Below, piece by piece: positions 49,917-60,255 of a stretch of DNA of 64,000 bases. Position numbers and translations under genes: made by a program. Location: the NCBI GenBank assembly GCA_965198005.1, contig CBDAOI010000003.1:704001-768000 (forward strand). The letters run 5' to 3'. The notes under the pieces are model-generated. The model had not been told where the DNA came from. It ran no database searches and was given only the letters and a program-made list of their open reading frames with translations. Position 1 is the first letter of the stretch; every line of letters starts with the position of its first letter. The stretch is from Spirochaetia bacterium (GTDB lineage Bacteria; Spirochaetota; Spirochaetia; SZUA-6; Bin103).

Positions 49917-50160
49917 AGACAAAGTCGCGGTGATCACCGGCGCAGGGCGCGGCATCGGCCGAGGGATTGCCCTCCACTGTGCCAAGGAAGGGATGAAGGT
50001 CGTCCTGGCCGGATTCGGGATGGAATCCCTCACCAATACCGCCGCCGACCTGAAGGCGCTCGGGGCCGAGACGCTGATCGTCCAGACGGATGTATCCCAG
50101 GTAGAACAGGTGGAAGACCTGGCAGCAGCCACGGTCGAAGCATTTGGGCAGGTCGACCTC
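49900..50160 (+). pseudogene. Short-chain dehydrogenase N-terminal fragment
   Basis: KVAVITGAGRGIGRGIA...TDVS...FGQVDL. Confidence 0.85.
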
Positions 50161-50259
50161 CAAGACTTGCGACGCCTTGAACGCAAGATCCGCAGACAAG
50201 CCCACTCCCTCGGTTATGACCTTGTCCCGGAGGTCGCCTCACTGGTTGTTTCTAAGAAG
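50160..50259 (+). mobile_element. Possible IS110-family transposase 3' tip and right end
   Basis: KIRRQAHSLGYDLVP followed by GTTTCTAAGAAG; weak recognition. Confidence 0.4.
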
Positions 50260-50924
50260 CTTCCCACCGGTCGGACTGGTCGGCGGCCGGAGTTGCCATG
50301 CAAGAAACAACGCAGCTATACTGTATGCGGGATCGGATGGCGCGCGAGGAGGCCGTCGAGTCACTGGTGTGCCGCCCTACGGGGCGAACCCGTTAAGAAG
50401 CTTGGTCCCGGGGCTTGTGAAGTTGACATTGGTGAGATCGCAGACTGGCATTGTCCGGTCGCGATCATCCCGTTCAGAAGAATACCTGTTGTTCACGCCC
50501 CGCCGCACCATCCACCCATCACACAGGAGGACGCAGGACGCCACAGACAGCCATTCAGTTCCTTGAACGCTCATCCTGACTTGATTGTTTCTCAGAAGAA
50601 GAAGAAGGCGGTTTCGACGAGCAGGGCACCTTCGTCTACATACCTCTTGGCCACCTCGAGACTATGACCGAGCTCCTACGCCGCCGAGTGATCGCGTTGC
50701 TGGGCGCTTGCCCGCGCCCGCTGCCCGCCGGCGGCGGCGGCGTCTTCATCGAGCCTCATCCAGCCCGCTTCGGCCTCCCTAGCCGCGGCAATCTTGCCAC
50801 ACCCGCCTGCGACGGCCGTCGCGACCGCGACCACCGCCAACCCCTCGCCCTCGTCCTGATCAGTCACGACCACGACGCGGCTCGCGGTGCTTTACGCTCG
50901 TTCGGGTTCTCGATTACTGTTCCT

Positions 50925-51730
50925 ATCACTTCATTATAGCCTGTGAGCCACGGCTGGGTCGCCGCATAGGTCGGGGCGATCGGACCAAATATCGTCCAGT
51001 ACTGCTCTATCGCATACTGATTCAGCTCTTTAGTAATGTTATTTGCTTCCTCCATAGTGGAAGCGGCCAACTTCTCCGCATGCTTGGCGTTATACCATGG
51101 GTCGTCGGTATTGGAGGTGTTCCGCCAATTCCACATAGTCCGTCTCGTAGCGGCCTAGATGCATAAGGTCGGTCTTGAATCGGATGACAGCCTGTGTAAT
51201 ATGCCGACTAAGCTGCCCCTGAGGTATTATATCGGCATAACCCTTATAGAATGCGTTGTTGATCTCTTCGAGGTTAATTGCCATCCGCAGCGCCTTGCGC
51301 ACCCTGATATCGTCAATCTGCGCCAACTGAACGTTCATGCCAATACTGTTATGCCCCGCATCGGAAGCCGGCCATATCCCGAGCTTGGAGTTGGTATTCA
51401 GGAGGCTTTCTACCTCCTCGAGAGTCTGTATCGGGGTCACGCCGAGAGAACCTAGGTAATCAAGCTGACCCGATCGCAGCGCCGCCATAGGTGTCGGCGG
51501 TTCCGTCATATTCAGGGTCCTTACCTCGTCAACATAGGGCAGGCGGTTCTCCGGATATTTTCGTCGTGGCCCCAGTAGTCGGGATTCTTCGTATGAGTGA
51601 AAGAGCTGCCCTCGACCCAGTCAGTCAGCATCATGGGTCCGGTGCCGACCAGGTTCCTCCAGTCGTTAGCGTGTCCGTCTTCCTCGATGACGTCGGGCGG
51701 GTATATCAAGCCGAACTCATCGTCCAAGAT
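50925..51730 (-). pseudogene. Eroded SBP remnant with multiple internal deletions
   Basis: WRNLVGTGPM, ALRSGQLD, DIRVRKAL, QPWLTGYN in disjoint pieces. Confidence 0.85.
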
Positions 51731-51823
51731 AGTTGGTCGGGTCGTCGGGTAGTCGGGTAGTCGGGTAGTGTCACCGTACGCGGGCAAGCGTAAGTACCGC
51801 GCGCCTTTGTGCAAGCGGCCACC

Positions 51824-52217
51824 CCGGGGCCGCGGGTACCGCTACACGGGCAAGATCTCTACACTGCCGAGCAGGCCGCCGAGTTGCTGCGGGTGACCAA
51901 CAGCACCGTGATCCGCTGGGTGGAAGCCGGTATGCTCCGCGGTACGCAGGTCACGGCGGGGGCACCTTGGAGGATCGTTGTCACCGACGAGGACATCGCC
52001 AAGCTCAAGCCTACCGATCACACCGACGGATGGCTCTCGCTGAAGGCGGCAGCGGCGGCGCTGGGCACCAGCCCGAATGCCGTTTTGCAAAGAGTCAGTC
52101 GCGGCGAGCTCGAGGGTGGTCGGGTTCGCTCAGGCCGTCGCATCGGTTGGAGAATTCGTTTACCAGAAACGACTTACGCAGATCAACCGGCGCTCTTTTC
52201 AAGCTCCGATGACCAAC
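51824..52217 (+). repeat. Duplicate of the 3' end of the serine recombinase gene (HTH repeats)
   Basis: Near-identical to 55448-55879 but without the 38-nt duplication. Confidence 0.9.
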
Positions 52218-52544
52218 TTACACAGTGCATTCCAGACTACTTATGACGATGATGATCTGCCCGCCCAGGTCCTGATTCTGTACCGGCCCCACCCGCTGGC
52301 TGGGCAGCAGGTGAGAGTCATCCAGCGACGACGTCATGGCCACCAGACATTCTGGCGGGTGCTTCTGCCAGACGGCTCGCATGCCGAGCTGCCGGCCGCG
52401 TGGACCGATCAACCAACTACCGAGTCCGCGTACTCCGCCGTGGATAATGGCGAACGCCCCGCGACGCCGCAGGCGCTCAGAGAGCTCCTTACCGTGGTGG
52501 AGCCGCTTGTTGGCAGCTCTAGCCAGCGACGACTTGTATTGTAG
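52209..52544 (+). CDS. DUF5372 (Y4bD/Y4pK)-like small protein of the recombinase element, interrupted near its 3' end by IS1595
   Basis: YRPHPLAGQQVRV...LPDGSHAELPAAWTD. Confidence 0.65.
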   Translation: MTNLHSAFQTTYDDDDLPAQVLILYRPHPLAGQQVRVIQRRRHGHQTFWRVLLPDGSHAELPAAWTDQPTTESAYSAVDNGERPATPQALRELLTVVEPLVGSSSQRRLVL

Positions 52545-53427
52545 GGCATGCCACGTCCTTCCTTCCCGGTGGGTCTGCGTGAGTTCCAACGCCAGTTTGC
52601 GACCGAGGAGGCTTGTTACCTGGGCGGTCGTTGGCCTGACGGGTTCATTTGTCCGCGATGTGATCACCGGCGCGCGTACGTTGGTGAAACTTCGCAGTGC
52701 ACGGCCTGTCGGTACCAGGTGTCTCTGACATCGGACGATTCTGCACAATACGTGCCCCTGACGGTGTGGTTCTGGGCCGATCATGACCACCATACGCGCG
52801 GGATACCAGCGAGTGCGACGATACGAGACCGTGGATGATGCTTCACAAGCCGACGAGGATGGTCAATGATCGCGAACGGTGACATAGAGATCGACGACAC
52901 GATCGGAGGCACTCAGGCCGGCGCGGGAGCCGCCGCTCAGAGAAGCGTGGCAATAAGACTGGACGGGCTCGTATGACGGTGATCCCCGATTTCAAGGCCA
53001 TCACGCTCAAGAGTTTCATCACGCAGAACGTGGCGCCAGGATCGAGGATCTACACCGACGCAAGACCTTCACCGGCCTGGAGCAAGCGGGATTCAAGCAC
53101 ATCGCCCGCTCGCAGCCGCTGAGGATCGATCTGCGGAAAGGCGCCCAGTCGGTGGTGCCCCTGGCTGACCGAGCGATCGGCAACCTCCAACAGTGGCTGA
53201 TCGGCACCTACCACGGTGTCAGTCGCGCTCAGCTGCAGGTGTATCTTGATGAATTCGTCTTTCGATACAATCGCCGCAAGCACCCTATGGCGGCTTTCCA
53301 AACGCTGCTCGGCCTTGGCACAGGCCAGACGCCCACGACCTACAATCGCATTCGTGGCGCCCGTGACCAAGAAGCGTCGTCGACTTATCGTCGGCTGAAA
53401 CAACCGTATAAGCTAGTGGCAGCTACC
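52512..53427 (+). mobile_element. IS1595-family element, heavily frameshifted
   Basis: EFQRQFATEEAC, RWPDGFICPRC, IYTD, GTYHGVS..LQVYLDEFVFRYNRR; right end GCTAGTGGCAGCTACC. Confidence 0.8.
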
Positions 53428-53472
53428 AGCTGAGAGAGCCTTGCCCCGAGGATTTATCCGGCGGAGGCAGCG

Positions 53473-53643
53473 ATGGGAAAGCAGCTGGAACTGTTCGAAC
53501 GGGAGGATCGTTGGGTGCTGCGGCTGTGGCAGACGATCCCAGCGGGGACCAAGGAGTGTGTGATGGCCGTGCTGACGCAAATCGGCAAAGCCGCGCTCGC
53601 CAGGAAGGGGACCGAGCACAAGAAGGTCGACGATGACGGCTGA
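53473..53643 (+). CDS. Small hypothetical protein coupled to the recombinase
   Basis: GGAGG RBS; MGKQLELFEREDRW...DDDG*; overlaps the recombinase start. Confidence 0.6.
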   Translation: MGKQLELFEREDRWVLRLWQTIPAGTKECVMAVLTQIGKAALARKGTEHKKVDDDG

Positions 53644-55887
53644 TGGGATCACCACGGGTCAGCGTAACCGTCTGGCGGTCGTCTACATCCGTCAGTCCTC
53701 GCCGCAACAGATAGCGCGCAACCCGGAGAGTCAGAGACGGCAGCGTGGGTTTGTGAACCGGGCGGTGCAGTTGGGCTGGCCGGCAAACCGTATCCGCGTC
53801 ATCGACGAGGATATGGGGCAGTCGGGGGCGCGATCGGGCAGCCGCCAGGGCTTCCAGCAGATGGTGGCCATGGCGGCGCTGGGCCGTATCGGGATCATTC
53901 TCGCTTTGGAAGTCTCGCGGCTGGCCCGCAGCAATGGCGATTGGTACCAGCTGCTGGACGTCTGTGCGGTCGCAGGTATCCTCATTGCCGATGAGGAAGG
54001 GCTCTACGATCCGGCGGCCTACAACGATCGGCTCCTGCTGGGGTTGAAGGGTACGATGAGCGAGGCCGAGTTGCACCTGATCAAACAGCGGCTGGTGGAA
54101 GGGATGCGGGCGAAGGCCCGGCGAGGCGAACTACGCCGCCGTCTGCCAGCGGGGTTTGTATGGGATCAGGCCGGACGGATTGTCAAAGATCCCAACGAGC
54201 AGGTGGTAGCGGCGATTGACGAGGTGTTCCATCGCTTTCGCAGAGTGGGCACGATTGGTCAAACGCAGCTGTCGCTGATCGACCAAGGGGTGGAGATTCC
54301 GGCACGGACCGAGCAAGGGACGTTGCGCTGGAGCCGCCCCAGTATTGGAGCGGTGGCACGGATGCTGAAGAATCCCACCTACGCCGGAGCCTACGTCTAT
54401 GGTCGCCGCCAGGTAGAGGAGCAACTGGACGGGTCTCTGAAGCCGCAGAAGCGAATGCGGGAAGTCGAGCCGCAGCGGTGGCACGCATTGCTGAAGGATC
54501 ACCACGAGGGCTACCTGAGTTGGGAGCAGTTCGAACACAACCAGAGGCAGATCAGGAGCAACCGGCGGGCGCCCGGCGAGGCTGGCGCACCCCGTGAAGG
54601 CGATGGGCTGCTGCAGGGCTTGGTGCTCTGTGGGATCTGCGGCAGGCGACTGCACATCGCCTACGGCAAGGGCTCCAAGCCATCGCGTTATTGGTGTGTC
54701 CAAGCTCGCCGCCAGAGTGGTGAGCCGACCTGCCAGAGCTTCGGGGCGCGGCGGCTCGAGCAGGCCGTCGAGCGGTTATTGCTGCAGTGTCTGTCGCCGT
54801 TAGGAATGCAGGCGATGTTGGAGGCGGCCCGGCTGCATGCCGAGGATGCTCAGCTGGAGCAGCAACGCCACGAACAGCGACTGGAGCGGGCACGCTACGA
54901 GGTGAGCCTGGCCCGCCGCCAATACGATGCGGTGGACCCTGAGAATCGGCTCGTGGCTCGGGAGTTGGAGAGCCGATATGAGAAGGCGCTATGTACCGAG
55001 CGCGATGTTCAAGCCGACGTCATGCGCGAGCTCGACAGGCTCCAGGAGCCCCTCAGCGCCGAACAGGAGCAGCTTCTGGAGCGCTACAGCGAGGACCTCC
55101 AGCCGTTGTGGAAGGCACCCACCACAGGAGCTGCCGATCGCAAGCGTATCGTGCGCTGCTTGATCGAGGCGGTGGTGGTCAGCGCATCTCGCGACAGCTC
55201 GACGCTCACGGCAAAGGTTCACTGGAAGGGCGGGTAGGTCACAGCGATCGAGCTGCCCAAAGGCCGCCCGGGCGTACATCGCTATGTCTCGCCTCCGGAG
55301 TTGGTGGAGCTCATTAGGACACTGGCAGCCGAGTTCACTGACGCCCAGATCGCGAGGATCCTAAGGCGCAAGAAACTGCTCACGCCCAAGGGCCACTCCT
55401 TCATGGCCTATCACGTGGCCAACGTGCGCCTCAAGCACGGTATTGCACCGGGGCCGCGGGTACCGCTACACGGGCAAGATCTCTACACTGCCGAGCAGGC
55501 CGCAGAGTTGCTGGGGGTGACCAACAGCACCGTGATCCGCTGGGTGGAAGCCGGTATGCTCCGCGGTACGCAGGTCACGGCGGGGGCACCGGTATGCTCC
55601 GCGGTACGCAGGTCACGGCGGGGGCACCTTGGAGGATCGTTGTCACCGACGAGGACATCGCCAAGCTCAAGCCTACCGATCACACCGACGGATGGCTCTC
55701 GCTGAAGGCGGCAGCGGCGGCGCTGGGCACCAGCCCGAATGCCGTTTTGCAAAGAGTCAGTCGCGGCGAGCTCGAGGGTGCTCGGGTTCGCTCAGGCCGT
55801 CGCATCGGTTGGAGAATTCGTTTACCAGAAACGACTTACGCAGATCAACCGGCGCTCTTTTCAAGCTCCGATGACCAACTTATGTGA
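53633..55887 (+). pseudogene. Large serine recombinase (resolvase, recombinase and Zn-ribbon domains plus C-terminal HTHs); in-frame TAG at 55235 and a 38-nt duplication at 55551-55626
   Basis: VYIRQSS, LEVSRLARS, LLGLKGTMSEAEL, NPTYAG, CGICG, VDPENRLV. Confidence 0.9.
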
Positions 55888-55904
55888 GGTATAGCAGTAT
55901 GAAC

Positions 55905-56032
55905 CGCATTGTCCGTGCTGCGGCTCAGAGATGAGGGTGATTGCCCTCATTCACGACCCGGTGGAGATCAAGCGCATCGTTGACCATCTAATCAAAAGTG
56001 GCAGAGCGCCTCCAGGGCTGAAGGTGTCTTGA
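55905..56032 (+). pseudogene. IS91-like transposase C-terminal tip
   Basis: CPCCGSEMRVIALIHDPVEIKRIVDHL...RAPP. Confidence 0.65.
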
Positions 56033-56349
56033 GTGAGTTGAGCTTCGACATCCTCGCTGCGCCCCCTCTCTGGCCTTAGCGCCCGCGAAAGCTGCCCTCC
56101 GTCTTTCCAGTCAGCTCACCTGCAGCGGTTGCAGAACACACCAGTTGACAGCTTTGGCGCTTTCACCTAAGGTCGGAGCGTTCTGGTGGGGGGCCGAGAT
56201 GAGGGCAGAGATGGGTATTGACAGATCGACAGCTTGGGCCCATGGTTCACCCATGTTGAGAGTTGATGCGGGGGGAGTGGAATCTGCCAGGGCGCGCTCG
56301 TCCGATCCCGCAGGCTCTGTCGGGGCCAACTTGCCAGCCTGCAGCAGCT

Positions 56350-56775
56350 CCCGTCCTTGTTCGCGGGTTTCCCAGGTACTATGGGCCTGTCCGACTTCCC
56401 AGCTCCGTTCATCGTCGGCGTACGTCCTTGGACTTCCCGACACGGCCTGCGACGCCATCCGCCACAGGCGAAGCTGGGATCTCCCGGCTCCCGCGCAAGG
56501 TGTTTCCGTACGTGCCCGGGGTCTTGGACCGCGCAGGGTCCCGTGGCGCCTCGCGATATCGGCGCCCCGGGTGTGGCCTTCCGCATCCTCCTACGGCGTC
56601 GGCACCCCAAAGTAATTCCTTTCGCGGCTCGATACCCGGCCCGCACGTACCCCTGTCAACGCTTCACCCCCGCCCTCGCGGGCGACGGCGCATGACTCGG
56701 GGCCGCCGTGGGTCGCTAACCCTTCGACGTATGACTCTTCCATTCACAACACCCTGCCGGTTTGTGCCGGCGCAC
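56350..56775 (-). mobile_element. Group II intron 5' fragment (DI to start of DIII), class E-like
   Basis: Begins GTGCGCCGG at 56775; GAAGGGTTAGCGACCCACGGCGGCCCCGAGTCATGCG; GAAGCGTTGACAGGGG; DIII GGAAGTCGGACAGGCCCATAGTACC; EBS1/IBS1 pairing. Confidence 0.85.
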
Positions 56776-56930
56776 AGGAGGTTCGAATGATACTCAAAGA
56801 ACCGCACGCGCGCGCGGCGTGAGCCGGGGTGAACCCGCTGAGTCACACGCCGCGCGCTTTTAGTGAATTTGACTCTGACTGGCCGTCCGCGTTGCGGGCA
56901 TGAGAGTAGCCAGGGAGCGGTAATCCGCTA
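56776..56930 (+). promoter_or_regulatory. Conserved leader A with uORF MILKEPHARAA (56787-56822)
   Basis: AGGAGG SD; homologous to 28196-28347. Confidence 0.55.
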
Positions 56931-56967
56931 CGCAATACTCTCGAAAAATCTACATACGGAGCTACGT

Positions 56968-58791
56968 ATGATTACTGTACAAATTACAATCATAAGGACC
57001 TTCGCGTTTGCGTTGGTCCTGGTCATGACCGCAACCGGCCTCTGGGCGGGTGGCGCAGAGGAGGAGCCGACAGCCGCCGCCGACAAGAGGTACGTGACCG
57101 ACCCCACCACCGGCAAGGCGGTGACCGCACCGGAGTATGGCGGGACATTGACCCAGGTCCTGAAATGGGGCGATGTCGACTTTCGACCGGATGCCTATAT
57201 TGGCGGTAATTTATCGTTACTCATCATCAGTGGCGTTCTAGAGAAGCTGGCCATGGTGGACTGGGCAATAGATAGGGACATATATCCTTTTTTCGGCGGC
57301 TACATGGCGCCTGTATTCGCCCTGACGGGGGCGCTGGCGGAAAGCTGGGAACAGCGTGATGACACAACTTATATCTTACACATCCGCCAGGGCGTTCACT
57401 GGCATGATAAGCCGCCGGTGAACGGGCGTGAGCTAACTGCCAAGGATGTAGAACATTCCTTTCACCGCATGTTGGGAAATAAATTGACAGGGACCGAGTT
57501 CAGTGAAGCCGAACCTTCCCCAGGGGGAGGTCACCTCGTAGCTTTGCCTTGGGAATCGGTAGAGGCCACCGACAAGTGGACGGTTGTTATGAAGCTGAAG
57601 GAGCCAAAAATCCTTGCCCTGGGTTATATCTTGGACTGGTTCAGTATGGTTATACAGCCCCCCGAGCTACTCGAGGAATACGGGGACGATTGGGATTGGC
57701 AGAATGTGGTCGGCACCGGGCCCTATATGATAACTGACTTGGTCCCGGTCAGCTCTGTGACCTGGACCAAGAATCCCAACTACTGGGGCTTCGACGAAAA
57801 ATACCCGGAGAACCGCCTGCCCTATATTGACACGTTAAAGGGACTTGTTATCATGGAAGTGGGCACATTTCTGGCGGGACTGCGCACGGGTAAGATCGAT
57901 TTCATAGGTTGGCCGGGCTCCTCTCAATTAAACGCTATAGACCAGGCAGAGAGCCTCATGCGGACCAACCCCGAACTCGTACTCCACACGTGGTCAGAAC
58001 GGTCGAATGCTGTTAGCGCGTTGAACCAGCGCCAGGCGCCCTATGACGACATCCGGGTGCGCCGCGCAATGCAGATGGCACTGGACCTCGAGACAATTAA
58101 CAATACCTACTTTAAGGGTTATGCAGAAACGTTACCTCGGGGGATGGTAGGCCTGGAATTCAAGGGGTATCACGTCCCATTTGAAGAGTGGCCCGAAGAG
58201 ATCAAGGGATACTATACCTATGACCCAGCAGGGGCCGAGAAGCTGCTTGATGAGGCTGGGCTTCCGCGTGGCGCCGACGGCATTAGATTCAAGACCACGT
58301 ACCTGCACCACCCGCGGCGTGATGTGAGCCTCACAGAATTACTGGCAGCACACTGGCGTGACATTGGCGTTGATGTGGTTATTGACACACCTAGCGGTGC
58401 AGAATTTAATACTAGAGTGAAAGTTGGAGATTTTGGTTTGTCCACGGATGTTGGGGGCGTCAAGGCTGATCCATTTTGGCAAGTCGGTAAGTTTCTCTCG
58501 GGCTCTGGAACGAACAGAGCTGGACTCTCCGACGCGCAATATGACGCCCTGTATGAAGCCGCCCCGGTGGCTACCACCATGGAGGAGCACGTGAGGCTGA
58601 TTAAAGAGATGGACTGGCGCATCATAGAGCAGCACTGGATGATCTGGGGGCCTTTGGCCCCAGCGTTTACCGTGCACCAGCCGTGGGTGATAGGTTATAA
58701 CGCCGAAGGCGGCTTTGGAGGAATGCAAAACCATGTTGTCTTCTCCCGCCTCTGGATTGATAGTGAGCTGAAGGAAGCAATGGGTCATTAA
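56968..58791 (+). CDS. Peptide ABC substrate-binding protein (module 7)
   Basis: Signal peptide ...MTATGLWA; APEYGGTLT; SBP family 5 motifs. Confidence 0.93.
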   Translation: MITVQITIIRTFAFALVLVMTATGLWAGGAEEEPTAAADKRYVTDPTTGKAVTAPEYGGTLTQVLKWGDVDFRPDAYIGGNLSLLIISGVLEKLAMVDWAIDRDIYPFFGGYMAPVFALTGALAESWEQRDDTTYILHIRQGVHWHDKPPVNGRELTAKDVEHSFHRMLGNKLTGTEFSEAEPSPGGGHLVALPWESVEATDKWTVVMKLKEPKILALGYILDWFSMVIQPPELLEEYGDDWDWQNVVGTGPYMITDLVPVSSVTWTKNPNYWGFDEKYPENRLPYIDTLKGLVIMEVGTFLAGLRTGKIDFIGWPGSSQLNAIDQAESLMRTNPELVLHTWSERSNAVSALNQRQAPYDDIRVRRAMQMALDLETINNTYFKGYAETLPRGMVGLEFKGYHVPFEEWPEEIKGYYTYDPAGAEKLLDEAGLPRGADGIRFKTTYLHHPRRDVSLTELLAAHWRDIGVDVVIDTPSGAEFNTRVKVGDFGLSTDVGGVKADPFWQVGKFLSGSGTNRAGLSDAQYDALYEAAPVATTMEEHVRLIKEMDWRIIEQHWMIWGPLAPAFTVHQPWVIGYNAEGGFGGMQNHVVFSRLWIDSELKEAMGH

Positions 58792-58829
58792 GAGGGAGCT
58801 GGGGGGCTCAAGCCTCCCAGCTCCCACAC

Positions 58830-59222
58830 AAGATGTCATGGCGAGGCGCGCCTTCTTACTGTCATTGCGAGGAGTCCTTCGCAGAAGGACGACGAAGCAA
58901 TCTGGTTGAGGCAACGGGATCGTCTAAGTGGATTCCGGCTTTCGCCGGAATGACGGGGAGAATCAAGGGGGACACCCCCTTGAACCCCCGTTTCAAAGGG
59001 GTTTCACCCCTCTGGACTCTCCAAAACGGTGAGAGGCGAGTTTCTTCGCAGGGGTCATTCGCACCTTAGAGAGTGCCGCGCCCTTCAGTGGAAGGGGCCG
59101 GAATGACGTGGAAGGTGGATTCCGGCCCCGTATCCAGTCCGGGACCGGCTTTTCGCGGGAATGACGTGGAAGGTGGATTCCGGTTTTCACCGGAATGACG
59201 AGTGAAGTGGCAATGACGGGGG
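58830..59222. repeat. Cluster of REP-like palindromes
   Basis: GTCATTGCGAG...GAAGCAATCT; several GTGGATTCCGG...GGAATGACG units; related element at 46328-46365. Confidence 0.75.
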
Positions 59223-59244
59223 AAATCGCGATGATGAGTGTGAC

Positions 59245-60255
59245 ATGAGAGCCTATATCATCAGGCGGTTATTGCTGATAATCCCCACCTTGTTTATATT
59301 GACCATCCTGGTCTTTCTCTCGGTCCGCTTCCTCCCGGGCGATGTAATAGACCGAATAGAAGCTAAAATGGAAGGCTTTGGCTCCACCATCAATATCGAG
59401 ATAGACCGTGAAGTTCTTGAGCGTATACTGGGATTAGACGTGCCTGTTCACGTGCAGTATGGACGCTGGATAGGAGTGTTGCCCACCCCTGACTGGGTTA
59501 CCGGTGAGTCCCACTTTAAAGGTCTCCTCCAGGGCACCCTTGGCGACTCACTGTTTGTTGGTTTTGCGGTAGAGGAGAGAATAATAGCTAGCCTGCCGGT
59601 AACCATTGAGCTTGGCGTCATGGCACTCGTAATCGGGTTCCTGATAGCCCTGCCAGTCGGCATCTACTCGGCGATTCGCCAGGATACCGCCGGCGACTAC
59701 CTCGGGCGCACCATCGCCATCATCGGCATGGCAACGCCTAACTTCTGGCTTGGAATTATGGTCATGATCTTCCCGGCAATCTGGTGGGGCTGGTCGCCAC
59801 CGATGGAGTGGATTCCTTTCACCGAAGACCCGCTGGGGAATCTCGGGGTGTTCATCATTCCCAGCCTGATTCTGGGGACGGCCATGTCGGCCGCCACCAT
59901 GCGGATGACGCGCACCATGATGCTGGAGGTGCTCAGGCAGGACTATGTCAGGACGGCCTGGTCCAAGGGTCTGAAGGAGAGGGTAGTTGTTATGAGACAT
60001 GCCATCAAGAATGCCCTCATCCCGGTAGTTACCCTCGTAGGCATGCAGTTGCCTATCCTGGTAGGTGGCTCCGTTATCATGGAGAACATCTTTAACCTGC
60101 CGGGGTTGGGTCGTCTCATGGTGAATGCCCTCAATGACAGAGACTACCCGGTGGTCTCCGGAGTCAACCTGGTTTTCGCCAGCGCGGTTATGGGGGCCAA
60201 TCTAATGATAGACATGATTTATCCTTATTTAGACCCCAGGGTCCGTTATAGATAA
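59245..60255 (+). CDS. DppB-like permease (module 7)
   Basis: MRAYIIRRLL, ATPNFWL, DPRVRYR. Confidence 0.94.
   Translation: MRAYIIRRLLLIIPTLFILTILVFLSVRFLPGDVIDRIEAKMEGFGSTINIEIDREVLERILGLDVPVHVQYGRWIGVLPTPDWVTGESHFKGLLQGTLGDSLFVGFAVEERIIASLPVTIELGVMALVIGFLIALPVGIYSAIRQDTAGDYLGRTIAIIGMATPNFWLGIMVMIFPAIWWGWSPPMEWIPFTEDPLGNLGVFIIPSLILGTAMSAATMRMTRTMMLEVLRQDYVRTAWSKGLKERVVVMRHAIKNALIPVVTLVGMQLPILVGGSVIMENIFNLPGLGRLMVNALNDRDYPVVSGVNLVFASAVMGANLMIDMIYPYLDPRVRYR

Follow-up and report, generated by a model that had tools for sequence, protein, structure and literature searches.

Bacterial group II introns have been assigned three target specificities: homing sites, terminators, and attC sites (PMC4424553). 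Group IIC introns insert after intrinsic terminators, as B.h.I1 does (Robart, Seo, and Zimmerly 2007, as summarized in PMC4424553 and PMC12584367). Like the lineage that we describe, they have no endonuclease, they use a generic, genome-wide expression signal in intergenic DNA, and they have many targets per host. However, they are described as reading a DNA hairpin with a 3- to 4-bp EBS1 and without an EBS2, whereas the present lineage has an EBS1 of 5 to 8 bp on the complement of a Shine-Dalgarno (SD) sequence and, at the sites of the relatives, does not need a hairpin. It also differs in matching the Rfam D1D4-6 model and in lying antisense to the gene whose signal is read. Membership in class C (IIC) was considered and rejected because of the 5- to 8-bp EBS1, because the insertion lies about 25 nt past a leader hairpin (minus strand), and because the relatives lack a common hairpin.

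Group IIC-attC introns (S.ma.I2 type) come closer in geometry. They also lie on the opposite strand, just upstream of a downstream gene, at a recurrent short motif (PMC3001079, PMC4424553). Their target is the integron attC recombination site, whereas that of the present lineage is an SD with a start codon. In addition, outward promoters are reported for them, whereas a simple sigma-70 scan found none in our introns. RmInt1 and RmInt2 of Sinorhizobium meliloti (class D) have an endonuclease-less (En-less) IEP and home into multicopy DNA (PMC4615759), two features shared with the present lineage. In head-to-tail copies of RmInt2, the EBS3/IBS3 pair is satisfied by the first base of the intron itself (PMC4615759), and the same logic matches the 2,016-nt tandem repeats with a +1 G that we found in one genome (G020; see below). 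However, the targets of RmInt1 and RmInt2 are IS elements, which both introns recognize by extended pairings of EBS1 and EBS2, and neither is described as having an SD-like EBS1 or an association with start codons.

Finally, a IIB1 lineage is monophyletic and tied to translation signals of protein-coding genes, as the present one is. Its members have 300 to 700 nt inserted at the domain I base; those in groEL interrupt the stop codon of the gene (PMC12584367). In contrast, the present introns total 1.9 to 2.0 kb. Their domain I is compact, and they are located 5' of the SD, on the strand opposite to the gene. We rejected membership in this start/stop-codon lineage, whose introns are expected within or right beside the start or stop codon of a housekeeping gene, because the domain I model starts 37 nt from the intron 5' end, the introns are 1,931 to 2,016 nt long, and their strand is opposite to that of the gene.

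We could not find a description of landing-site choice at antisense ribosome-binding sites (RBSs) in the literature searched. A full-text search, without supplements or the Zimmerly intron database, returned no account of SD- or RBS-directed insertion. Here we analyze a locus that probably represents this behavior. We consider it likely to be a dead 5' fragment from an endonuclease-less intron lineage whose members carry at least nine phylum labels and land antisense at translation-initiation regions.

The window carries a 5' fragment of a mobile group II intron

The window is the whole 64,000-nt stretch of DNA that was analyzed, and it comes from a genome (G000) of 4.9 Mb in four contigs with 66% G+C. 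On the minus strand, the exon reads ...TCATTCGAACCTCCT and is followed by intron sequence GTGCGCCGGCA... from position 56775. The 5' splice-site motif GTGCG (56775-56771, minus strand) was read directly, and the boundary is identical in all aligned copies. From there, a 439-nt 5' fragment of an intron of family A occupies 56337..56775 (minus strand) with 96 to 98% identity to intron nucleotides 1 to 439 of other copies. Similarity to the sibling copies ends at 56337, which is intron nucleotide 439. Everything past that nucleotide has been deleted, and what is left comprises domain I and the beginning of domain IV.

The domain I core at 56738-56519 (minus strand) matched Rfam RF02005 (group-II-D1D4-6) with 184.2 bits and an E value of 6.5e-54 over model positions 1 to 225 of 225. 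In this copy, the model starts 37 nt past the intron 5' end. We take this model to have been built from bacterial class F introns. The features of the present introns that are relevant to class are their compact ribozyme, their En-less IEP, and the RF02005 match; no named class F references were compared. No match to domain V (RF00029) was found at an E value of ≤1 within 50000-60000.

Comparison with two other copies (L061, the full-length family A sibling in G000, and L143, a copy in G020) showed that only the first 25 codons of the intron-encoded RT (MNGAGKSDRPIVPGKPANK...; 56412-56337, minus strand) remain, the rest having been cut off by the deletion. The DNA past the deletion (56336-56209, minus strand) is 98% identical to G000:C3:768056-767931. 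That sequence sits 102 nt from the insertion point of an empty copy, at C3:768158, of the leader repeat described below. In other words, 56336-56209 corresponds to DNA that lies, in gene orientation, about 100 nt in front of a different leader copy. Therefore, a single deletion took intron nucleotides 440 to 1931 and, with them, some 100 nt of the 3' exon.

The structure line of the Rfam alignment places an Id3-type hairpin, GCCGACGCCGUAGGAGGAUGCGGAAGGC, at 56603-56576 (minus strand), with GUAGGAGGAU in its variable loop. The loop contains EBS1, AGGAGG (56592-56587, minus strand), which co-varies with the 5' exon in relatives. By direct reading, the final six bases of the 5' exon are IBS1, CCTCCT (56781-56776, minus strand). 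On the plus strand, these six bases are the AGGAGG SD motif of a leader uORF. The element is a fragment, without domain V, of a mobile group II intron: it has the domain I fold with an EBS1 hairpin and a 5' GUGYG boundary. The window copy has lost its own 3' end, and the 3' AY boundary is that of the full-length sibling, whose insertion was shown to be precise by empty sites.

An earlier note on this DNA had placed a group II intron at 56350-56790. The RF02005 match upholds its identity as an intron, but the element is incomplete, being a 439-nt 5' fragment without an RT gene or domain V. The same note had put EBS1 in an Id3 hairpin at 56587-56592, and the coordinates proved correct, with the loop placement coming from the RF02005 alignment. 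It had also claimed a perfect 6-bp match to a 5' exon ending at 56776-56781, which we confirmed and which exceeds the shuffled expectation in relatives. Its claim that the intron is inserted antisense at the AGGAGG of a leader uORF was right as well, because TTCGA and an ATG ORF (56787-56822) lie beyond the AGGAGG.

A leader repeat adjoins the intron fragment

Genome BLAST identified a conserved leader of about 190 nt that precedes paralogous substrate-binding protein (SBP) genes, and the window has one copy at 56776..56967 (plus strand). The gene behind it (56968..58791, plus strand) encodes an ABC-transporter substrate-binding protein (Pfam SBP_bac_5; E value, 4.4e-65). The 124 nt upstream of the intron had 81 BLAST matches in G000, and 70 of these extended to the insertion point. 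The genes preceded by the leader are paralogous and encode lipoprotein-like substrate-binding proteins.

The leader is ordered as AGGAGG, 5 to 7 nt, ATGATACTSAAAGARCCG..., a long GC hairpin with a T-run, a second hairpin, and the GGAG and ATG of the SBP gene. In the window, AGGAGG (56776-56781) and TTCGA are followed on the plus strand by an 11-codon uORF that runs from ATG to TGA at 56787..56822 (MILKEPHARAA). The long GC-rich hairpin and its T-run, read directly and conserved in leader copies, are at 56806..56857 (plus strand). AGGAGG is present in 60 of the 70 leader copies, and the uORF starts with ATG in 65 of the 70. Across the copies, uORF codons 2 to 6 have 43 synonymous third-position differences and 10 nonsynonymous ones. 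This synonymous excess fits a translated leader peptide, so that the leader AGGAGG is plausibly, on comparative evidence, a working SD of a translated uORF.

Insertion sites in a sister genus

Of 61 related genomes searched at the DNA level (a set that includes G000), 12 contained the intron. In three genomes of a sister genus (G020, G018, and G023), the copies share 87% identity with the window fragment. These copies have different EBS1 loops, and each loop pairs with its own 5' exon (UGGAGG with CCTCCA, CGGAGG with CCTCCG, and GGGAGA with TCTCCC). Another loop in a relative, AAGGAG, matches the exon CTCCTT.

In G020 there were 27 matches. Loci were obtained for 25, and these comprised 17 unique sites and 8 head-to-tail repeats with a period of 2,016 nt. 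Read antisense, 15 of the 17 sites, which are unrelated to one another, have an SD-like hexamer (NGGAGG-like), N4-9, and a start codon. The same was true of three of the four sites in G018 and G023, which brings the total for the sister genus to 18 of 21. The sites share no common hairpin. For one copy in G020, orthologous loci without the intron were identified. The G020 3' exons have only their first base in common, and it was a G in 15 of the 16 that could be recovered. Because the intron itself also begins with G, an occupied site remains a target, which accounts for the head-to-tail arrays in G020.

We called gene starts from Pfam coordinates rather than from junction frames. Open frames across the reconstructed junctions were uninformative, because in this GC-rich DNA long frames occur on both strands. 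Six of 10 downstream ORFs tested in the sister genus had Pfam matches. For IU_nuc_hydro, Amidohydro_2, and Hydantoinase_B, the alignment set in at profile position 1 and began among the first 13 residues of the ORF. At four G020 sites, however, the ATG opens merely 13 to 39 codons. One G020 site lies inside a "fucosidase" gene. Here the Pfam alignment sets in only at profile position 81, and the reading frame runs on into the 3' exon. In seven sister genomes, this site is the uninterrupted ...CCGCCA/GAGGATC... (the slash marks the insertion point). Therefore, the TGGAGG-N6-ATG at the fucosidase site is an in-frame look-alike within the gene, an internal pseudo-RBS.

Relatives in other phyla

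We scanned one genome per species with the intact G020 protein and obtained 80 loci with 56 to 97% identity. A domain I profile located the intron 5' end in 70. Before sites were counted, duplicates were removed, as were copies directly behind another intron and sites whose flank was shorter than 25 nt. Where the IEP was 64 to 100% identical, there were 48 unique sites, of which 34 had an SD-like EBS1 matching the exon, 39 had a start codon 3 to 11 nt past the hexamer, and 32 had both. (The SD-like count in this group comes from an automatic criterion that misses several evident cases.) Where the IEP was 56 to 63% identical, only 2 of 13 unique sites had an SD-like EBS1, 1 had a start codon at that distance, and 1 had both.

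Pooled with the sister-genus sites, the set came to 80 unique sites under nine phylum labels. An ATG lay at an offset of 10 to 15 nt from the insertion point at 47 of the 55 sites with a GGAG core versus 6 of the 25 others, and this offset was 12 or 13 in 39 of 48 sites. The 6-bp EBS1-IBS1 match is not due to chance. We examined pairing in the 73 of 80 unique sites whose hairpin was found by pattern and counted contiguous pairs from exon position -1. There were at least five pairs in 64 of the 73 and at least six in 54. When loops were paired instead with the exons of sites having a different loop, 200 shuffles gave a mean of 21.6 sites with at least five pairs and a maximum of 30.

An IEP tree was built from 36 of 74 candidates, the others having been dropped for lack of an ORF of at least 380 aa with Y[AV]DD within 2.3 kb. 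In this tree, a clade with 99/97 support contains 18 SD-type rows and 3 purine-rich, near-SD rows under nine phylum labels. RVT_1 is the sole Pfam match of the IEP, which has no endonuclease domain. Domain V of the relatives scored 38.4 to 43.2 bits.

The sites again adjoin varied genes. Long downstream ORFs from different phyla had Pfam matches in 8 of 10 cases tested (14 of 20 for both ORF sets together). Matches to adh_short, Sulfatase, and Iso_dh began at profile position 1, and two ORFs were binding proteins with signal peptides. One site (L122) is in an AAA_15-like frame (31 bits), and its ATG is out of frame. In an intron on plasmid NZ_CP068711 of Burkholderia thailandensis, GGAGAAA serves as EBS1, and TTTCTCC forms the end of the exon. 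This intron starts 11 nt from the annotated start codon of an enoyl-CoA hydratase/phosphate acetyltransferase gene, on the opposite strand. Plasmid matches had only generic "ltrA" annotations and no class name. Two copies from more distant relatives have other targets. One, on a Klebsiella IncL/M plasmid (53% identity), is inserted in the LexA box upstream of umuD, and the other, in Ralstonia, lies in sense inside an IS5-like transposase.

The earlier note had inferred that the intron recognizes the antisense strand of RBSs. It had suggested examining relatives and their flanks for antisense placement at an SD and start codon, and it had named other EBS1 sequences, or sites unrelated to start codons, as grounds for refutation. 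The placement was found at all 16 sites examined in the genus of the window, at 18 of 21 in the sister genus, and, as judged by the start codon, at 39 of 48 close cross-phylum sites. The inference holds for the lineage, on the strength of the 18 sister-genus sites and the 47 GGAG-core sites, but in the genus of the window it has to be narrowed to one leader. Exceptions do occur in the close group. Most of its sites are SD type, but some close relatives have an unrelated EBS1 (AUGCAU, CGAUAG, or CCGAAG), and 8 of the 55 GGAG-core sites have no ATG.

What the intron may read at its target

It is quite possible, although we propose it only tentatively, that this cross-phylum lineage reads the whole translation-initiation signal on DNA, by means of an SD-mimicking EBS1 and a second contact on the complement of the start codon. 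The mechanism beneath this proposal is one that we consider likely. The EBS1 loop, an SD look-alike such as (A)AGGAG(G/A), pairs with the complement of the SD of a gene. The intron RNA then reverse-splices into the template strand, immediately 5' of the SD in gene orientation, so that it is directed away from the gene. Target choice also depends on a single 3'-exon base (G in G020 and T in G000), and a short, variable EBS2 may pair weakly with the spacer between the SD and the start codon. The CAT that is almost always present 12 to 13 nt upstream of the insertion point is probably read directly, by protein or RNA. Direct reading of the CAT is an inference, and so is replication-primed synthesis of cDNA, whereas the anatomy, the pairing and its co-variation, the precise insertion, and the site statistics were observed.

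The alternative that fares best is that only a 5- to 7-nt EBS1 match and the +1 base are read and that a filter produces the enrichment at initiation regions. Insertions elsewhere could be purged, or the DNA at gene starts could be easier to open for a protein without DNA-binding and endonuclease domains. The majority of the sites are indeed true gene starts. Also, the occupied sites in G000 belong to a highly redundant paralog family, in which silencing should be cheap. However, a gene should be silenced to much the same degree whether an antisense insertion lies between its promoter and its SD or within the gene itself, which leaves little to filter.

The G020 copies are informative here, because they are near-identical and therefore recent. 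In the G020 background, CAT occurs 4 to 9 nt upstream of CCTCCAG in 156 of 2,784 cases (5.6%). In contrast, CAT is present at N4-9 in 9 of the 10 occupied sites with the exact hexamer CCTCCA. This difference is hard to reconcile with a filter, and so is the presence of an ATG without a gene start inside the fucosidase gene, at the out-of-frame AAA_15-like site, and at the four sites that open only 13 to 39 codons. From the same observations (the 9 of 10 versus 5.6% in near-identical copies, the short-ORF sites, and the fucosidase and AAA_15-like sites), we infer that direct reading of the CAT is favored. The internal pseudo-RBS of the fucosidase gene and the out-of-frame ATG at L122 also suggest that it is sequence, rather than RBS function, that seems to be read.

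Direct evidence for a CAT contact was not obtained, and in this respect the filter explanation keeps some support. No conserved AUG-bearing single strand or RNA element that could be the partner of CAT was found among 80 introns. The ATG offset varies much as natural spacing does, with a standard deviation of 1.09 versus 1.15 for the distance from SD core to ATG. Because this spread is no tighter than that of SD-ATG spacing, a contact at fixed distance is not demonstrated. A scan of the 80 introns for an EBS2, using 5-mers complementary to exon positions -22 to -7, gave weak enrichment only at the internal loop before Id3 (18 observed versus 8.1 expected in one bin). By eye, pairing of this internal loop can be made out in some families (e.g., AACCAU with ATGGTT in L181 and L193), and the G020 family is inconsistent. 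Contacts this far into the 5' exon have a precedent. In EcI5, distal positions around -14 to -18 are known contacts (PMC8643678). A protein or single-base RNA contact with CAT is therefore plausible. On balance, we consider recognition of the hexamer alone, followed by a filter, to be unlikely.

Family A and the leader repeat in the genus of the window

To return to the reading of an SD together with a start codon, the genus of the window provides the narrowest case. Of the 37 RF02005 matches in G000, 33 exceeded the gathering score; the matches fall into two families (A and B). The 5' end of family A is kept at twelve places. The sole full-length copy is L061 (C4:411884-409954; 1,931 nt), which has the 3' end ...CCAAC and a domain V of 37.1 bits, against a gathering score of 40. 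Its 3' exon, TCTTCTCTAGAT..., is the sequence that follows CCTCCT in unoccupied leader copies. Therefore, the insertion was precise. Compared with the sister-genus copy, the L061 RT lacks 30 residues between RT blocks 3 and 4, and its RVT_1 match is in two pieces; the G020 copy has an intact RVT_1 (125 bits). With this 30-aa RT deletion in the only full-length copy, we found no evidence of family A activity in this genome, and judging from its sequences the family looks decayed there.

Family B has about 20 near-identical copies in G000, which start with GAGCG. It has GUACUC as EBS1 and is preceded by 5' exons that end with GGGGTAC or GGGGTAT. An EBS1 that is different and yet matches its exons confirms the identity of the EBS1 loop. 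"Type 3" elements at the leader position were first read as a second intron lineage, but they appear to be family A 5' remnants of about 40 nt fused to an upstream repeat.

In G000, family A, a truncated form of it, or a remnant of about 40 nt occupies 18 of the 70 leader copies, always at one position. All 16 copies examined in this genus (4 in G000 and 12 in four congeners) lie antisense, directly 5' of AGGAGG-N5-7-ATG in the leader. Because every one is in the same paralogous leader, G000 alone cannot separate homing to an RBS from homing to a repeat. The intron could simply home into the multicopy SBP leader, much as RmInt1 homes into an IS element, and the SD look of the six bases would then be incidental. 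In addition to the 16 of 16 placement, such homing would fit the pattern of empty sites. There are 2,927 AGGAGG sites in G000, and 643 have an ATG or GTG at N4-9, yet only leader copies are occupied. Moreover, about 31 of the approximately 88 empty CAT-N4-9-CCTCCT/T sites are leaders, so that the leader is preferred beyond the generic motif. Ordinary repeat homing is nevertheless very unlikely and is contradicted as a full account, because the 87%-identical sister-genus relatives lie at 21 unrelated loci with the same antisense SD-N-ATG pattern, because that pattern recurs in relatives under nine phylum labels, because the relatives' sites are not one repeat and their ORFs are in different Pfam families, and because the leader position is itself the SD-ATG of a uORF with coding-type substitutions.

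What the empty sites do indicate is that family A is narrower than "any RBS" in this genus, because many nonleader motif sites remain unoccupied. In the scheme that we prefer, with the SD and start codon read together, a family with EBS1 AGGAGG and a +1 T would have settled here on the uORF initiation region of the leader, before about 70 paralogous SBP genes. We also considered 16S rDNA as an ancestral target and rejected it. Although the target core of family A is present in the single 16S 3' end found by pattern in G000 (...CACCTCCTTTTAAC), no intron is inserted there.

Possible consequences of antisense insertion

If it is true, specificity for antisense RBSs would join long homing sites, terminators, and attC as a fourth target strategy. 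Any bacterium that uses SDs would offer thousands of such targets, and this would account for the spread of the lineage across phyla. A universal motif would be a simple reason for the occurrence of one lineage in Spirochaetota-labelled MAGs, Acidobacteriota, Planctomycetota, Pseudomonadota, and others. For annotation, start codons would predict intron 5' ends, and vice versa. For gene-targeting vectors, the lineage would be a natural case of very short, degenerate target rules. Also, because EBS1 is complementary to the 16S rRNA 3' end, the same SD-like loop might conceivably let the intron RNA bind to 30S subunits.

The intron copies face the 5' end of the target gene. An outward intron promoter driving that gene, which would have explained why insertions are tolerated, was considered and is not supported. 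A simple scan found no sigma-70-like promoter on either strand in the first 600 nt of the copies, with none in 56300-57050 of the window or in L143 1-700. The scan was crude, and such a promoter is therefore not excluded. Each insertion puts about 2 kb between the SD and the upstream DNA, on a strand that cannot be spliced from the mRNA of the gene. From this geometry, we infer that insertions should act as gene or operon silencers, cutting their targets off from their promoters. About a quarter of the 70-member SBP family in G000 carries the intron or a scar.

Leader and intron remnants

A conserved leader of ~190 nt (window positions 56776-56967, plus strand) precedes the paralogous SBP_bac_5 genes, and there are ~70 further copies of it in the window's own genome. 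It contains a uORF (MILKEP...) and then two hairpins, the first of them long, GC-rich, and followed by a T-run, and the leader matched no family in Rfam. This may be a cis-regulatory element, not yet described, that serves a very large family of paralogs.

The same genome carries remnants of ~40 nt from the 5' end of family A, the group II intron family of the window's fragment. They are joined to another repeat and occupy the same leader position (C4:1379987, C4:1735505, C1:4928, C3:502587, and C2:457723, where C1 to C4 are the genome's contigs). These remnants are probably deletion scars.

Target site in a sister genus, and intron arrays

In G020, a genome of the sister genus, the intron-bearing site inside a "fucosidase" gene (L110/L133) reads CCTCCA, whereas seven sister genomes in which this site is uninterrupted (L230-L236) read CCGCCA. 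The difference is a synonymous change of an Arg codon in the gene, and CCTCCA creates a perfect match to EBS1.

Introns of G020 were also seen arrayed head to tail, repeating every 2016 nt, at eight loci (L101, L106, L111, L112, L114, L116, L119, and L120). Re-insertion at the 5' junction accounts best for these arrays, since the intron itself begins with G, the base required at +1. In a MAG labelled Marinacidobacterales (locus L205, 1757-8395), domain I matches repeat every ~882 nt, and ORF-less copies of an intron appear to lie there in tandem.

Other introns and elements

Besides family A, the window's genome contains another intron family of the RF02005 type, family B, with the 5' start GAGCG and the EBS1 GUACUC. 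Copies are found at C4:168056, 170321, and 173304 and in ~17 other places. They are nearly identical to one another and lie in repeats of their own, some spaced by only 2.2-3 kb.

A related intron is present on a Klebsiella pneumoniae IncL/M plasmid (NZ_CP065954; L226, locus position ~1140), with an intron-encoded protein (IEP) that is 53% identical and the EBS1 ACUGU. Its 5' start falls within a LexA-box-like palindrome, CTGT-N8-ACAG, at 34 nt upstream of umuD, which is on the opposite strand. Among the 5000 best-scoring tblastn records for relatives of this IEP, at least 3701 are Klebsiella plasmid records.

Within the window, Rfam RF02003 (group-II-D1D4-4) has two identical matches of 50.8 bits on the plus strand (207-378 and 2059-2230), with the loop CCUAGGAGGCUAAC. 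These are the "ORF-less introns" named in the earlier note. The window also holds a large serine-recombinase-like ORF (534 aa) that continues in a separate ORF; the ORF and related parts are at 51809-52246, 53633-55237, and 55301-55887 (plus strand). The window has two copies of the 3' part of the large ORF, and ~38 nt are duplicated in tandem near 55560-55640.
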